Positions 4,374-64,000 of a DNA stretch of 64,000 nucleotides are shown one piece after another. Origin of the DNA: Escherichia phage vB_EcoM-E33. The position numbers and the translations under genes are program-made. The stretch lies in the sequence record OL780484.1. One strand, written 5' to 3'. The notes under the pieces were generated by a model, which worked only from the letters and a program-made list of their open reading frames with translations, did not search any database and was not told where the DNA came from. Position 1 is the stretch's first letter; each line of letters opens with the position of its first letter.

Positions 4374-4403
4374 GTTTACATCTGCTTTAAACATGATACT
4401 ATA
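4374..4403 (+). promoter_or_regulatory. T4-type early promoter upstream of motA
   Basis: GTTTACA, spacer, GATACTATAG. Confidence 0.55.
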
Positions 4404-55085: not shown

Positions 55086-55313
55086 TTAGAAATCTTCCTC
55101 TTCCTCGTCGTCCATCGACTCCAATTCAGCTCTCTTACCAGCCAATGCATCACGCACGCTAATATCGTCCGAATCACGAAGTTCAGCTTCCTTACTACGA
55201 GTTTTGTAATACTTCTCTAGTTCCTTCAGACCGTCCATAGTCTGACAAGAACCAATTTTAGCCATGAAGCTTTCAATAGATGCTTCTTGAATAACTTCTT
55301 TAAAGGTTTTCAT
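55086..55313 (-). CDS. uvsW.1: UvsW.1
   Basis: 75 aa acidic ORF overlapping the uvsW stop by ATGA. Confidence 0.7.
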   Translation of the reverse strand: MKTFKEVIQEASIESFMAKIGSCQTMDGLKELEKYYKTRSKEAELRDSDDISVRDALAGKRAELESMDDEEEEDF

Positions 55314-56806
55314 AAATCCACCTGTTTCATTACGTAATTAAATTTCTCATCAGCATAACGTTGAATACGTTCTAAAGCGTGTTTGAGGGCGTAGTTCAAA
55401 TGAACATATTTCTTTTTAGCCGTAGCTGATTTAGGCTTAACACCCATGTCGTCGATGATATCCCACACCTGTGCTGTTGATTTAGAGGCATGTTTACGGA
55501 GTACACGACCAATTGTCTGGAGTACAATGATTTTAGATTTTACTGGATGGGCAAATACAACGTGGTGAAGGTTCTTAACGGAAATACCAGTAGAGAACAC
55601 ACCATAACTTGCCACAACAATAATACCCTTACCATTTTCCGCCATTACTTTCAGAGCATTACGCGTTTCGGTATTAACTTCACCTGATACGTAATAAACT
55701 TCTTTATGTTGCTCTTTAACCATTTCAAAAAGAGTTTTACCGTGTTCGATGTTTTTAAACATCAGGAATACGTTCTCTTCTTTCTTAGCGAGTTTAACAG
55801 CTAAATTAGCAACCCATTTATTACGACGAGTAGCCTTAGTAATGACCTTGATTTCTGATTGGTAATCTTTACCTTTCATTTTAACCGTGAATTCGTCTGG
55901 GTATCGAAGGAAAATACTGTTGATTTTAAGGTCAGTAACCTGTCCTTCTTCCATTAACTGGGAGGTGGATACTGGCTTAAACACATCACCAAACAAACCC
56001 ATATATTGCATTAAATTAGCTTTACCATCTTTTAAAGAACCAGACAAACCGAATTTAAACATACAGTTGGTTAGGCCTTCGATGATAGTAGAAATAGATT
56101 TACCTGTAGCCAAATGGCATTCGTCGTTCATAAACATACCGAACTGAGCAAACCATTCTTTAGGTTGCTTGATAGCGGTTTGATAAGTTGAAACATAAAT
56201 CATTGCATCGGAATCACGAGCAGTACCTGAACGAATACCAAGCATTGCGGCTTTAGGGAACAGACGATAATCGATGAAGTCGTTAATCATCTGGTCGACA
56301 AGTGCAGTAGTAGGAACTAAGATGAGGATTTTACCTTCATAGTTCTCAACGTAATATCGACTCAGGAGCGCCTGGATTAATGATTTACCTGCGGATGTAG
56401 GTAAATTCAGAATTGCACGACGTTTTGTCAGGCCGTTGTATACGGCTTCATTCTGATACCAATGAGGCTCAATCTTGGTAGACCCTGAATAAATTTCTTG
56501 AGAAGCTACCCATGAATCAAAATCTTCACGAGAAATATCTTCCTGTTCAAGAATACGTGGGTCAATCCACAGAGAGTATTCAAATTGTTCAGCGAACTTT
56601 TTAATTTGAGGGACCAATCCATAAGGAAGTTTACGGTTGTAATCCAGAAGGCGAATACGTCCGTCCCATTGGCCATAACGAAATTTAGGGTTGAATTTAT
56701 ATCCATCAGCTTCAAAGCTAAAATAGTCTCTGAGTTCGTAGAATGTAGATTCATCGCATTCAATACGGACATGACTAAAATTATCAAAATGTACTTGAAT
56801 TTGCAT
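55310..56806 (-). CDS. uvsW: UvsW SF2 DNA helicase
   Basis: 498 aa; Walker A-like LNLPTSAGKS; helicase motifs; synteny. Confidence 0.85.
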   Translation of the reverse strand: MQIQVHFDNFSHVRIECDESTFYELRDYFSFEADGYKFNPKFRYGQWDGRIRLLDYNRKLPYGLVPQIKKFAEQFEYSLWIDPRILEQEDISREDFDSWVASQEIYSGSTKIEPHWYQNEAVYNGLTKRRAILNLPTSAGKSLIQALLSRYYVENYEGKILILVPTTALVDQMINDFIDYRLFPKAAMLGIRSGTARDSDAMIYVSTYQTAIKQPKEWFAQFGMFMNDECHLATGKSISTIIEGLTNCMFKFGLSGSLKDGKANLMQYMGLFGDVFKPVSTSQLMEEGQVTDLKINSIFLRYPDEFTVKMKGKDYQSEIKVITKATRRNKWVANLAVKLAKKEENVFLMFKNIEHGKTLFEMVKEQHKEVYYVSGEVNTETRNALKVMAENGKGIIVVASYGVFSTGISVKNLHHVVFAHPVKSKIIVLQTIGRVLRKHASKSTAQVWDIIDDMGVKPKSATAKKKYVHLNYALKHALERIQRYADEKFNYVMKQVDL

Positions 56807-58818: not shown

Positions 58819-59826
58819 ATGTTCAAGAAATATAGCAGTCTCGAAAACCACTACAACAGTAAGTTTATCGAAAAACTCCGTACTAACGGTTTGACTGGTG
58901 GTGAATGGGTAGCACGTGAGAAGATTCATGGAACCAACTTTAGTTTAATCATAGAACGTGACGCAGTCACATGCGCCAAGCGCACTGGCCCTATCCTCCC
59001 TGCTGAAGATTTCTATGGTTATGAAATTGTACTTAAGAACTATGCTGATTCTATTAAATCTGTTCAACATCTAATCGAATCGATTAATTACCAGTCATAT
59101 CAGATTTACGGCGAATTCGCTGGGACAGGTATCCAGAAGAATGTGGACTACGGCGATAAAGACTTTTATGTGTTCGATATCCGAGTTACTAAAGAAGATG
59201 GCTCAGAATCTGTTCTAACCGATACATTGATGGAAGCCTTCTGTATTATCCATAAGTTTAAGGTAGCTCCATGTCTGGCCACTGGTAGCTTTGAAGACCT
59301 TATTAAACTTCCTAATGATTTTGATTCAGTTGTTCCTGATTATAATTTTGCAGTGGATAACGCAGGCTTAACTATTGCAAACTCAACCGATTTTATTCCT
59401 AAGGTAGAAGGTAAGGTATTCACGGCTGAAGGCTTTGTATTGAAACCTGATGTTCCTACCTGGCTTCCAAACGGAAATCGTGTGGCGATTAAATGTAAGA
59501 ACTCTAAATTCAGCGAGAAGAAAAAGTCTGATAAGCCTATTAAAGTTGCAGTGGTATTGTCCCAAGACGATATGGATTTGATGTGGCAATTCACCGATTA
59601 TGTGACTGTTAACCGCATTAACAATGTCATCAGTAAGATTGGCGAAGTATCGCCGAAGGATTTCGGAAAGGTGATGGGCTTGACAGTCCAGGATATCCTT
59701 GAAGAAGCCGCCCGTGAAGAATTGGAATTAACTGATGCGGAAAATCCCGTTGAAGTTAAAAAGCAGCTCGTTGAGTGCGTAAAAGAAACATTAAGACATG
59801 TATGGATTGAACTAGTATCCAAATAA
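58819..59826 (+). CDS. rnlB: RNA ligase 2
   Basis: 335 aa; very high similarity to remembered T4 Rnl2 ([58 protein letters not shown]). Confidence 0.95.
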
Positions 59827-59834
59827 ACGATAAA

Positions 59835-59860
59835 GGGACCTTACGGTCCCTTTTATTTTT
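59835..59860. terminator. bidirectional terminator between convergent rnlB and gene 24 copy A (gggacc-UUAC-ggtccc, T-runs on both sides)
   Basis: hairpin with flanking T/A runs. Confidence 0.55.
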
Positions 59861-61133
59861 CTAAAGGCGGTAATTTTACGCCGAGATAAGAACTCAATTG
59901 ACTTTGATTAGCCATTTTGTCCATATCAGAACCATCAATAATGCGGGCTTCTTTATCGTCCTTAGCGACGGTATAAGGGTTTGCAGTCAATGCATAACGA
60001 GCAAGCAATGCTACTGTAGGTTGTAAGCTTTCCGGGTCAACAATAACCTTAAATTCACCAACTGAAGTATCACCTTCTTCGTCAACCACATTCAAACCTT
60101 CCGTATAAGGCGCATAATATAAAGATGCGACCGTCTGTCCTTCACCCATCTGGGCATTTACACCAACAATAACATAATCACATGGACTATTCATATCAGC
60201 ATAAAGTGGTAGGCCATTCTTTAATATACCATAAGCCAATTCGTCCTGGTCTTCCTTTTTCTCAACCCAACCAGAGGCGGCGAGAATAGCAGCACAACGA
60301 GAACTAGCTACTGCATAAGTCCCGGCAAAAGAAGTCTGTCGTTGGACGGCAGAGTTCATCTCACACATATAATAATATAATGTGCGAGCACGGTCCTGGG
60401 CATTATCGTAGCGAGGGTTGGTAAGGTCTAATACACCCTTTTCAGAAACACCCCGGACTTTAAAACGAGAGCTCACGGTAATTAATGACTGTAATACATC
60501 CTTATTAATTTCTTCTGCCATTTGAATGCCTAGCAGATTTTCAACGAAATTAGGAGCATTAAACCCGTTAGATTCTAGGTCTTGGGCTAATTCGACTGTC
60601 AATGAAGTTTTCAGTTTACGTGATTTAACTTCAGATTGCCATTTGTCGATACGGAATCCGGTTTCAGCAATTTCAGGATGGCCTTGTTCAAATTTAGAAG
60701 TAATAGCAGCATCCGACACCATACGGATATGGCCGGCTGCCACTGCTTCAGAAATAACTTCGCTGAGGTTGGTTTCTGTGGTTCCGGCGAAAGGAGATGC
60801 TTCTAGAACTTTAAACACTACGCTTTCAAACTGGAACATATCACCGACCGCATAAGCTGTAGATGAATCAGTAAATTCTGGAATATTTTCACGTTCCGTC
60901 ATACCAATCTGGCCCGCAAATGTTGCTCCACCAAGATAAGTCATTTTGTCGTCAGGATTCAGTACACGTACCCCATACAGAGCAGCAACCGGTTGATTTG
61001 TTTTTTGTTCAGCAACTAGGGCTTTAAAGATTCGTTTATTAGTTGCTTGGGTGTATGAAAGAAGAGCAGGACGGCCAACCGAGCTGGCAGCCGTCAATGT
61101 GGATTCTTTAATTAGGTCTACAATCTTAGACAT
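59853..61133 (-). CDS. gp24-like head vertex protein, paralog A (426 aa)
   Basis: about 55-60 percent identical by eye to the adjacent gp24; shared blocks RKLKT-LTVELAQD-ESNGF-AP-F, EINKDVLQSLITVS, ANPYTVAKDDKEAR. Confidence 0.75.
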   Translation of the reverse strand: MSKIVDLIKESTLTAASSVGRPALLSYTQATNKRIFKALVAEQKTNQPVAALYGVRVLNPDDKMTYLGGATFAGQIGMTERENIPEFTDSSTAYAVGDMFQFESVVFKVLEASPFAGTTETNLSEVISEAVAAGHIRMVSDAAITSKFEQGHPEIAETGFRIDKWQSEVKSRKLKTSLTVELAQDLESNGFNAPNFVENLLGIQMAEEINKDVLQSLITVSSRFKVRGVSEKGVLDLTNPRYDNAQDRARTLYYYMCEMNSAVQRQTSFAGTYAVASSRCAAILAASGWVEKKEDQDELAYGILKNGLPLYADMNSPCDYVIVGVNAQMGEGQTVASLYYAPYTEGLNVVDEEGDTSVGEFKVIVDPESLQPTVALLARYALTANPYTVAKDDKEARIIDGSDMDKMANQSQLSSYLGVKLPPLEK

Positions 61134-62444: not shown

Positions 62445-62452
62445 TATTTATA
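62445..62452 (-). promoter_or_regulatory. late promoter TATAAATA for gene 24
   Basis: plus-strand TATTTATA about 28 nt upstream of the gp24 ATG. Confidence 0.55.
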
Positions 62453-62458
62453 AAAGTT

Positions 62459-62488
62459 GTTTACAGCAAGATTCTCACATGTTACTAT
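62459..62488 (+). promoter_or_regulatory. T4-type early promoter on the opposite strand, abutting the gene 24 late promoter
   Basis: GTTTACA, 17 nt, TACTAT, then TATAGACATATCAAAACATGAGGAG. Confidence 0.5.
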
Positions 62489-62517
62489 AGACATATCAAA
62501 ACATGAGGAGATTAAAA

Positions 62518-62784
62518 ATGAACAAGTTAAACTTTATTCGTACTACTCTTTCCGCTCTTGATAAAGACATCAAAGCTCTGGTAGAAAAATTCGGTAACAA
62601 TCCTAATGGTAATGCAGTGAATGCCTTAGTTAAGAAATACGAAGCCATGGCTTATGCTACCGACTTCTGGTGGAACGGTGAATACTCTACCCATACCAAA
62701 GACAAATCTGGTAACTGGCTGAAAATCCAAGAAAATCGTATTGACTTCCGTGATATCATCAACCGCCGAGTTAAGATTGCATAA
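62518..62784 (+). CDS. hypothetical protein, 88 aa, between genes 24 and 23 where T4 has segD
   Basis: ATG after GAGGAGATTAAAA. Confidence 0.5.
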   Translation: MNKLNFIRTTLSALDKDIKALVEKFGNNPNGNAVNALVKKYEAMAYATDFWWNGEYSTHTKDKSGNWLKIQENRIDFRDIINRRVKIA

Positions 62785-62799
62785 TACAGAAACAAGAAT

Positions 62800-62817
62800 G
62801 GGAGACCGAAGTCTCCC
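62800..62817 (-). terminator. terminator hairpin downstream of gene 23 on the minus strand (gggagac-UUCG-gtctccc)
   Basis: hairpin 17 nt after the gp23 stop, followed on the minus strand by a U-rich tract. Confidence 0.5.
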
Positions 62818-62833
62818 ATAATAAGGTTATATC

Positions 62834-64000
62834 TTAGATACCTTTAACATATACGCGACGGAAGTAACCATTCAGACCAAGGCTGTTAACGATGTCAGGC
62901 ATACCATTCTGGATACGTTTGGTAGGAGCCTGAGCAGCAGGGTCAGCGAACGGGTTGATACCGATACCGTAACGAGTTTTGAAGCCCATTACCGGTTGGA
63001 AGTTCTTCGGATCGGAACCACGCAGCGGGGTCAGTGCAACGTACGGAGCATAGTAGATACCTGCGTCCATTTCGTTAGCGCCTTTATAACCGATGGTGAA
63101 GTAATCGGAACGTGCATACTGGTCGATGTAAACGCGATATTTACCACCAAGAACACCGGCAAATACTGCTTTGGTTGTGTCAACGTTGAAACCTTGACCC
63201 AGACCTTGAGCTGCATAACTTACAGAAGTATCAACTGCAGCCAGTACGTTAACTACGTTACGGGAAGCGATGATGAAGTTACCAGCACCACGACCGGTCT
63301 GACGAGCGATTTCGGCTGCTTCTTTATCAATCTGGAACAGAAGGGCTTTAAAGCTCTCACCGGCCCAACGAGCACCACGGATATCAATCGGGTCCTGGAA
63401 GTCAAACACACCAGCTTTAGCGCCAACGGTGTTGGTCATACCAGATTTACCAACCTGTGCAGAGTAGTTAATCCAATCGATAACTTCACGGTTGATTTCG
63501 AGCATAATTTCGGTAGCAAGGATACCGGACAGTTCAGCATCTGCATCCATACCGTGTACTGCACGAAGGTCCTGTGCCAGTTCGATAGAGTAGCTTGCTT
63601 TCAGCTGACGGGATTTAGCTTCGATAACTTGTTTGTCGATGCGGAAGCCCATTTCGTTCCACGGGTTATCGGTAGAACCGTTAAAGCCTTCCTGAAGTTC
63701 GGCGATAGAAGTAGCCATACCTTCAGCCAATTCAGCCAACTTACCAGCTTCAATCAAAGCGGTAACAGCAGCATCCAGTTTAGCGGCATCAGTAGCAGCA
63801 GCATCAACGGTTACGGCTTCAACAGCCTGGAAGTGTGCAGCACCGGTAGCTTCGAAGAAGTGAGAATAAATTTTACCAACTTCCAGAACTTTGCTTGCCG
63901 CCAGTGCTTCGAAAGTTTCAGCAGCACCCTGACCAGAGAACATAGCGTCTGGAGAATACATCGGATGGAAAGCTTCTTTAGCGCCAGAAGCGATAGGGTC
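62834..64000 (-). CDS. 23: gp23 major capsid protein, C-terminal part (5-prime end of the gene lies beyond the window)
   Basis: ORF open to the window edge; codon usage of a highly expressed gene; C-terminus GYFRRVYVKGI. Confidence 0.85.
   Translation of the reverse strand, partial: DPIASGAKEAFHPMYSPDAMFSGQGAAETFEALAASKVLEVGKIYSHFFEATGAAHFQAVEAVTVDAAATDAAKLDAAVTALIEAGKLAELAEGMATSIAELQEGFNGSTDNPWNEMGFRIDKQVIEAKSRQLKASYSIELAQDLRAVHGMDADAELSGILATEIMLEINREVIDWINYSAQVGKSGMTNTVGAKAGVFDFQDPIDIRGARWAGESFKALLFQIDKEAAEIARQTGRGAGNFIIASRNVVNVLAAVDTSVSYAAQGLGQGFNVDTTKAVFAGVLGGKYRVYIDQYARSDYFTIGYKGANEMDAGIYYAPYVALTPLRGSDPKNFQPVMGFKTRYGIGINPFADPAAQAPTKRIQNGMPDIVNSLGLNGYFRRVYVKGI

Follow-up and report, generated by a model that had tools for sequence, protein, structure and literature searches.

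Why does a gene with an early promoter lie within a block of late capsid genes on the opposite strand, and what might its product do? The first-pass annotation of Escherichia phage vB_EcoM-E33 placed an early promoter and an 88-aa plus-strand ORF between the minus-strand late genes 24 and 23, in the intergenic slot where T4 carries the homing endonuclease gene segD, and read the slot as a permissive insertion site now holding a different cargo. We analyzed this locus in a 64,000-nt stretch of the phage genome (sequence record OL780484.1), referred to here as the window. Over its last 4.2 kb, the window shared 99.8% identity with QL01, 99.5% with Bp7, and 89-94% with JS98 and JS10, all of which belong to Dhakavirus (Tevenvirinae), and the window phage is a JS98-like T-even phage. 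As listed in Table 1, the ORF was indeed located on the plus strand inside the minus-strand late capsid block, between genes 24a and 23.

Table 1. Features of the slot between genes 24a and 23 and of its surroundings, in window coordinates.
Feature	Position	Strand	Basis or remark
rnlB	58819-59826	+	local gene order
Gene 24b	59853-61133	-	gp24 paralogue adjoining gene 24a
Gene 24a, head vertex protein, 427 aa	61133-62416	-	ORF list; so annotated in QL01, Bp7, and JS98; left border of the slot
Late promoter of gene 24a, TATAAATA	62445-62452	-	direct reading and pattern search
Predicted T-even early (sigma-70 type) promoter	62460-62488	+	promoter scan and position weight matrix (PWM)
-35 element, TTTACA	62460-62465	+
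Extended TG	62480-62481	+
-10 element, TACTAT	62483-62488	+
Post-promoter box and short leader, AGACATATCAAAACATGAGGAG...	62489-62517	+	box common to other early promoters of the window
Predicted transcription start	~62494-62496	+	distance to the -10 element
Shine-Dalgarno sequence, GAGGAG	62505-62510	+	7 nt upstream of the ORF ATG
88-aa ORF, phrog_6003	62518-62784 (ATG at 62518, stop codon 62782-62784)	+	PHROG match, dN/dS, AlphaFold2
9-bp G+C-rich hairpin, common to the convergent units	62798-62819	both	terminator scan, folding
Gene 23, major head protein, 3' part	62834-64000, continues past the window end	-	ORF list and annotation of relatives; right border of the slot

Two further observations were made on the surroundings of the slot. 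The gp24 (head vertex) paralogues 24b and 24a are arranged in tandem, abut at 61133, and are 55% identical to each other; the duplication is also annotated in JS98, VR7, and STML-198, and a single copy is present in Mosigvirus HX01, CHI14, and T4. At another position in the window, uvsW (55310-56806) is a single 498-aa ORF, and in Bp7 it is annotated as two pieces, the larger of which adjoins an HNH homing endonuclease gene. Judging from this comparison between the window and Bp7, the uvsW locus is another variable site.

At the left border of the slot, the plus strand reads TATTTATA and the minus strand accordingly gives TATAAATA from 62452 to 62445, an exact late-promoter match 29 nt upstream of the gene 24a ATG (62416). 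The motif was not enriched in the window as a whole (nine copies found versus 6.4 expected), and the copy in front of gene 24a was kept at the same place in all seven phages compared (T4, T2, JS98, HX01, VR7, STML-198, and CHI14). The -35 hexamer of the early promoter starts seven bases beyond TATAAATA on the plus strand, confirming that the two promoters abut each other on opposite strands, as the first-pass annotation had stated.

The early promoter, which had been assigned to 62459-62488, was recovered to within one base. Its TTTACA and TACTAT hexamers, 17-nt spacer, and extended TG agree with a T-even sigma-70 promoter, for which a TTTACA-type -35 and a TAnnAT -10 hexamer at a spacing of 16-18 nt and an extended TG were required. 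Because bare matches to the sigma-70 consensus were not above chance in this region (two found versus 3.0 expected), class membership was tested with a PWM. The matrix was built from 15 other plus-strand promoter-like sites of the window, extended from 4 nt before to 18 nt after the -10 hexamer, and left out the promoter of the ORF. Under this leave-one-out scheme the ORF promoter scored 28 bits and ranked 8th of ~128,000 positions, background sites scored no more than 11 bits, and every high scorer was located on the plus strand. When only the leader was scored, the ORF promoter ranked 10th of ~128,000 positions. These results indicate that the predicted promoter belongs to the phage's own early promoter class. 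The conserved leader that had been claimed for it held in substance, since the box TACTAT-AGAC(C/A)TATCAA(C/A)-A...GAGGA was common to the ORF promoter and five others, at 4375, 21169, 21880, 22169, and 29401; the exact 25-mer, however, had no second copy in the window, even with three mismatches allowed. Folding of the leader RNA revealed no significant structure (z = 0.01).

The window holds a whole family of plus-strand early promoters, in which the conserved box runs past the -10 element (TGnTACTAT-AGACCTATCAACTA...). The -10 hexamers of this family start at 550, 1218, 4397, 6779, 17923, 21191, 21902, 22192, 29423, 32677, 34599, 36260, and 46669; the sites at 1218 and 34599 were added by the PWM and had been overlooked by a simple hexamer pattern.

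The ORF encodes a hydrophilic protein of 10.2 kDa with a pI of 9.6. A mechanical ORF list starts it five codons upstream, at an ATG that no ribosome site precedes. Within Dhakavirus, pairwise dN/dS was 0.05-0.11 at a dS of 0.14-0.45, and the ORF is a real gene under purifying selection. It matched phrog_6003 of PHROGs v4 (function unknown) with an E value of 6.8e-50, residues 1-88 aligning to positions 1-88 of the 90 profile positions, which places it in that family. Entries 100% identical to it are present as "hypothetical protein" in Bp7 (EpBp7_0229), IME540, and ABTNLS3, and JS98 orf173 (YP_001595302) and VR7 ORF190c, both annotated as hypothetical, are 97.7% and 67% identical, respectively. 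The ORF is thus a gene already catalogued as hypothetical, at a plastic spot of a known kind.

Apart from phrog_6003, the homology and structure searches that the first-pass annotation had proposed for the 88-aa protein returned no characterised relative and no match to a solved fold. Pfam, NCBIfam, and PADLOC gave only sub-threshold noise, as did a profile search against PDB sequences; DUF5380 of Pfam reached 12.8 bits (E = 0.11), below its gathering threshold of 29 bits, and none of the PADLOC defence-system models matched at E values up to 10. Neither sequence nor fold similarity to characterised anti-defence inhibitors was found, and the window contained no paralogue of the protein. AlphaFold2, run with a nine-sequence alignment, produced a confident model (mean pLDDT 90) predicting helices at residues 3-25 and 31-48, a beta-hairpin formed by strands 52-61 and 67-71, and a C-terminal helix at 77-87. 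Foldseek found no structural match to this predicted fold in the PDB, and its only match in BFVD was a member of the same family. In sequence and in modelled fold, the 88-aa protein therefore resembles nothing characterised. A profile search recovered 29 members of the family, and K3, F6, N30-G31-N32, and Q71 were invariant among 21 of them. From the helix-hairpin topology of the model, one would expect the invariant NGN, at the beginning of helix 2, and the beta-hairpin tip (K/D-G) to share one end of the protein and perhaps to make up a binding surface there.

Seven proteins came up when 1.8 billion representatives were searched exhaustively with phmmer, and in IMG/VR the family profile hit isolate-like Dhakavirus and Gaprivervirus genomes and nothing else. 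Several candidates from these comparisons were set aside. P0009 (E = 2e-18) and P0013 are metagenomic repeat proteins of 1633 and 772 aa, with five to nine Ig-like repeats that each weakly match NGN...W.dG..St.t.D.SGNW. Both were rejected as homologues because each repeat matches the same ~38 residues at no more than ~34 bits, which is insignificant alone in a library of 1.8 billion; because the whole-protein score sums nine repeats; and because helix 2 of the model falls within the matched stretch, while the repeats resemble Ig-like beta domains. P0010, a 160-aa protein 88% identical over residues 32-64, is apparently a chimera called from a 701-bp metagenomic contig and was uninformative. 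A seemingly different C-terminus in the segD-bearing phages (tblastn coverage of residues 1-72) was a masking artefact; the translations are full-length, and only the last two residues differ.

On the 3' side of the ORF, the hairpin carries a UUCG loop and a U-rich tail on the minus strand, where alone it was called by the terminator scan, and because of this loop and tail it is the predicted terminator of gene 23. The plus-strand form presents a CGAA loop without a U tract and was not called, although it folds at -16.4 kcal/mol; folding energies on the two strands were -16.4 and -15.9 kcal/mol, with z of about -3.6 to -4. An equivalent hairpin was found in JS98, HX01, CHI14, T2, and T4. Dhakavirus, Mosigvirus, and Winklervirus share the same minus-strand core of the gene 23 terminator, GGGAGAC-UUCG-GUCUCCC, although the rest of the gap differs among them; T2, T4, and STML-198 have the variant core GGGA(A)CC-UUCG-GG(U)UCCC.

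Comparison with other T-even phages bore out the claim that the slot is permissive. As read from the genome sequences, the gap between genes 23 and 24 occurs in at least four natural states, with five arrangements seen. The slot is empty, with the late promoter followed directly by the hairpin, in T2, ~90% of Tequatrovirus records, Winklervirus CHI14, and Gelderlandvirus STML-198, the last of which keeps a possible remnant of the -35 element. Late promoter, early promoter, and hairpin without any gene are present in Dhakavirus dhabil, a clean deletion that lacks exactly 62491-62784 (the leader and the ORF to its stop codon, ~294 bp) and joins the promoter to the terminator hairpin. The phages dhaeg, CLB_P2, and CUA3 also lack the ORF; the junction was read in dhabil alone. 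Early promoter, ORF, and hairpin make up the slot in the window, JS98, Gaprivervirus VR5, VR7, and VR20, HX01 and other Mosigvirus, and metagenomic T4-like lineages, and in IME08, IME341, PNJ-9, the LF82 series, and vB_EcoM_005 segD is added between the ORF and the hairpin. In T4, the early promoter is followed by segD and the hairpin; only 53 matched Tequatrovirus records carry segD. The late promoter and the hairpin were present in every state examined, and the early promoter was present wherever cargo sits and, in addition, in dhabil.

The ORF is not conserved as a core gene in all relatives, being absent from T4, T2, ~90% of Tequatrovirus records, Winklervirus (CHI14), Gelderlandvirus (STML-198), and some Dhakaviruses. 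This distribution across genomes indicates that it is a dispensable, accessory gene, gained or lost as a unit. Identity to the window ORF was 64-67% in Gaprivervirus, 33-36% in Mosigvirus, and 58% and 27% in the metagenomic T4-like lineages. Having diverged so far while remaining syntenic in at least four lineages (Dhakavirus, Gaprivervirus, Mosigvirus, and metagenomic), the ORF looks like an old resident that was often lost rather than a recent insertion, and the description of it as a different cargo was not supported: it is syntenic in the three genera and in a fourth, metagenomic lineage, at 27-66% identity. Because its regulatory frame is largely conserved while its contents come in at least four natural states, the gap would lend itself to the insertion or exchange of early-expressed genes when T-even phages are engineered.

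A promoter-like site was found at the same position in JS98, IME08, HX01, VR7, dhabil, and T4. Like the late promoter and the hairpin, the early promoter does not look specific to the 88-aa ORF, because the same position would drive segD in T4 and no gene in dhabil. This raises the question of whether the promoter matters more than the gene. In such a reading, the ORF would be a passenger, and early transcripts running across the gap and, in antisense, into gene 23 would hold down capsid gene expression that is premature or leaky, or else clear the region. Read-through into gene 23 is plausible given that the plus-strand hairpin lacks a U tract, and both the retention of the promoter in dhabil after loss of the ORF and the T4 promoter in front of a different cargo are in keeping with a role of the promoter itself. 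However, T2, most Tequatrovirus, and CHI14 have nearly identical capsid genes without the promoter, implying that phages can do without such regulation; purifying selection on the ORF is strong; and the ORF is kept in phages where it does not lie opposite capsid genes. We regard the antisense explanation as improbable.

T4 does carry segD in this slot, as the first-pass annotation had stated, and in the same orientation as the window ORF, on the strand opposite genes 23 and 24. The best promoter-like site upstream of T4 segD, TTTACA-17-TGaTATTAT at 107253-107281 (minus strand) of NC_000866 (10 of 12 matches plus the TG), occupies the position equivalent to that of the window's early promoter. 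A 2010 review considered the segD promoter not identifiable and its transcript levels probably vanishingly low (PMC2988022). In contrast, time-resolved omics data from 2022 class T4 segD RNA as early and the protein as middle (PMC9697503, supplementary files 4-6), and the T4 promoter found by slot comparison would explain this early RNA class. The early class of T4 segD in turn supports activity of the promoter at that position. Early transcription in vB_EcoM-E33 is inferred from the promoter class and from T4 as a proxy.

The ORF could also have been thought to stand in segD's place. In IME08, IME341, PNJ-9, the LF82 phages, and others, however, both genes are present in tandem, with segD beginning 3 nt past the ORF stop on the same strand. 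Because the two coexist in this way in many phages, the ORF is, on genome comparison, not a replacement for segD, and this part of the first-pass annotation was not supported. SegD of IME08 and SegD of T4 are orthologues with 56% identity. The last residues of the ORF product are ...RRVKAA in IME08, IME341, and vB_EcoM_005, the three phages with segD that were read, and ...RRVKIA or ...RRVKIV in phages lacking segD. The nucleotide sequences of IME08 and JS98 diverge from ~12 nt before the ORF stop onward, which places the boundary of the segD insertion inside the last codons of the ORF. segD is probably a later addition downstream of the ORF that uses the same promoter.

The same observations would be compatible with the ORF being part of a segD mobile element, as a partner, an immunity factor, or a landing site, so that phages with the ORF only would carry the element minus its nuclease. 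The invariable position of segD immediately downstream where both occur, 3 nt after the stop, the ...VKAA ends with a divergence that starts inside the last codons, and the orthology of the two SegD proteins can all be read in this way. On the other hand, each gene also occurs without the other, segD in T4 and the ORF in Mosigvirus, Gaprivervirus, and many Dhakaviruses. No nuclease is annotated next to the homologues in Vequintavirinae and in a ~50-kb phage (described below), and the ORF product has no similarity to SegD: BLASTP against T4 SegD gave a best E value of 0.6, and no Pfam domain, GIY-YIG included, was found. Membership of the ORF in a segD element thus seems unlikely to us.

Family members were also found outside the T-even slot. 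The Vequintavirinae phage ABPH49 encodes a member with 61% identity to the metagenomic member P0012, within an array of small same-strand genes; members on a 141-kb Vequintavirinae-like contig and on a 35-kb contig are likewise embedded in arrays of small genes that share one strand and have no known function; and in a ~50-kb phage the member is located beside a primase-polymerase gene and an Ead/Ea22 gene. By gene context, the homologues are surrounded by small early genes in unrelated phages, a distribution as expected of a horizontally exchanged early accessory gene.

These contexts bear on a capsid-related role, in which the protein would be an assembly helper or a regulator of the duplicated vertex protein. 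The position of the ORF between genes 23 and 24 invites such a role, and many carriers also have two gp24 paralogues. The occurrence of family members outside the T-even slot argues against a capsid-specific function, however, as they are found in early, non-structural regions of other phages. Moreover, the ORF has an early promoter on the opposite strand, Mosigvirus carries it with a single gp24, STML-198 and dhabil have two gp24 genes without it, and natural deletions of the dhabil type already suggest normal capsids and burst size in its absence. A capsid-related role is therefore very improbable.

In our opinion, the region between late genes 24 and 23 is probably an early transcription unit complete in itself, with a dispensable, host-directed product. 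Right after infection, sigma-70-bearing host RNA polymerase would initiate at the early promoter and synthesize a transcript consisting of a ~23-nt leader and the 88-codon gene, which would then meet the hairpin that terminates gene 23 from the other side. The product would be a small, basic, soluble phrog_6003 protein, whose model has two long helices followed by a beta-hairpin and a last helix at the C-terminus. Synthesized within the first minutes after infection, it may act on a host component, in takeover or counter-defence. With moderate confidence, the protein is most likely a dispensable, host-directed early accessory protein of one of these two kinds rather than one acting on the capsid. 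More specifically, it might be an early orphan-fold effector that neutralises the host immune system or hijacks a host factor, a suggestion that we make only tentatively and that has less than an even chance of being right. The presence of the gene in three unrelated enterobacterial phage groups, together with its repeated clean losses, would fit a gene useful only on hosts with a matching defence.

Small early genes in plastic regions of T-even genomes are generally host-takeover or counter-defence factors. The window ORF resembles these genes in its early promoter, small size, lack of an enzymatic domain, patchy distribution, and dispensability, and also in how fast it diverges (33-36% identity between genera, even though megablast still aligns their neighbouring capsid genes at the DNA level). 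It differs from them in lying alone within a late structural block and not in a long early cluster. By itself the ORF matters little, being one more uncharacterised small early T-even phage gene. From phrog_6003 as represented by JS98 orf173, Bp7 EpBp7_0229, and VR7 ORF190c it showed no difference: it is the same gene in the same slot, on the same strand, and in the same promoter context. The T4 segD unit shares with the window's ORF unit the slot, the orientation, the terminal hairpin, and a sigma-70-type promoter back to back with the late promoter of gene 24. The cargo, in contrast, is unrelated, since SegD is a 223-aa free-standing homing endonuclease of the GIY-YIG type, whereas the window protein has 88 aa and no nuclease motif.
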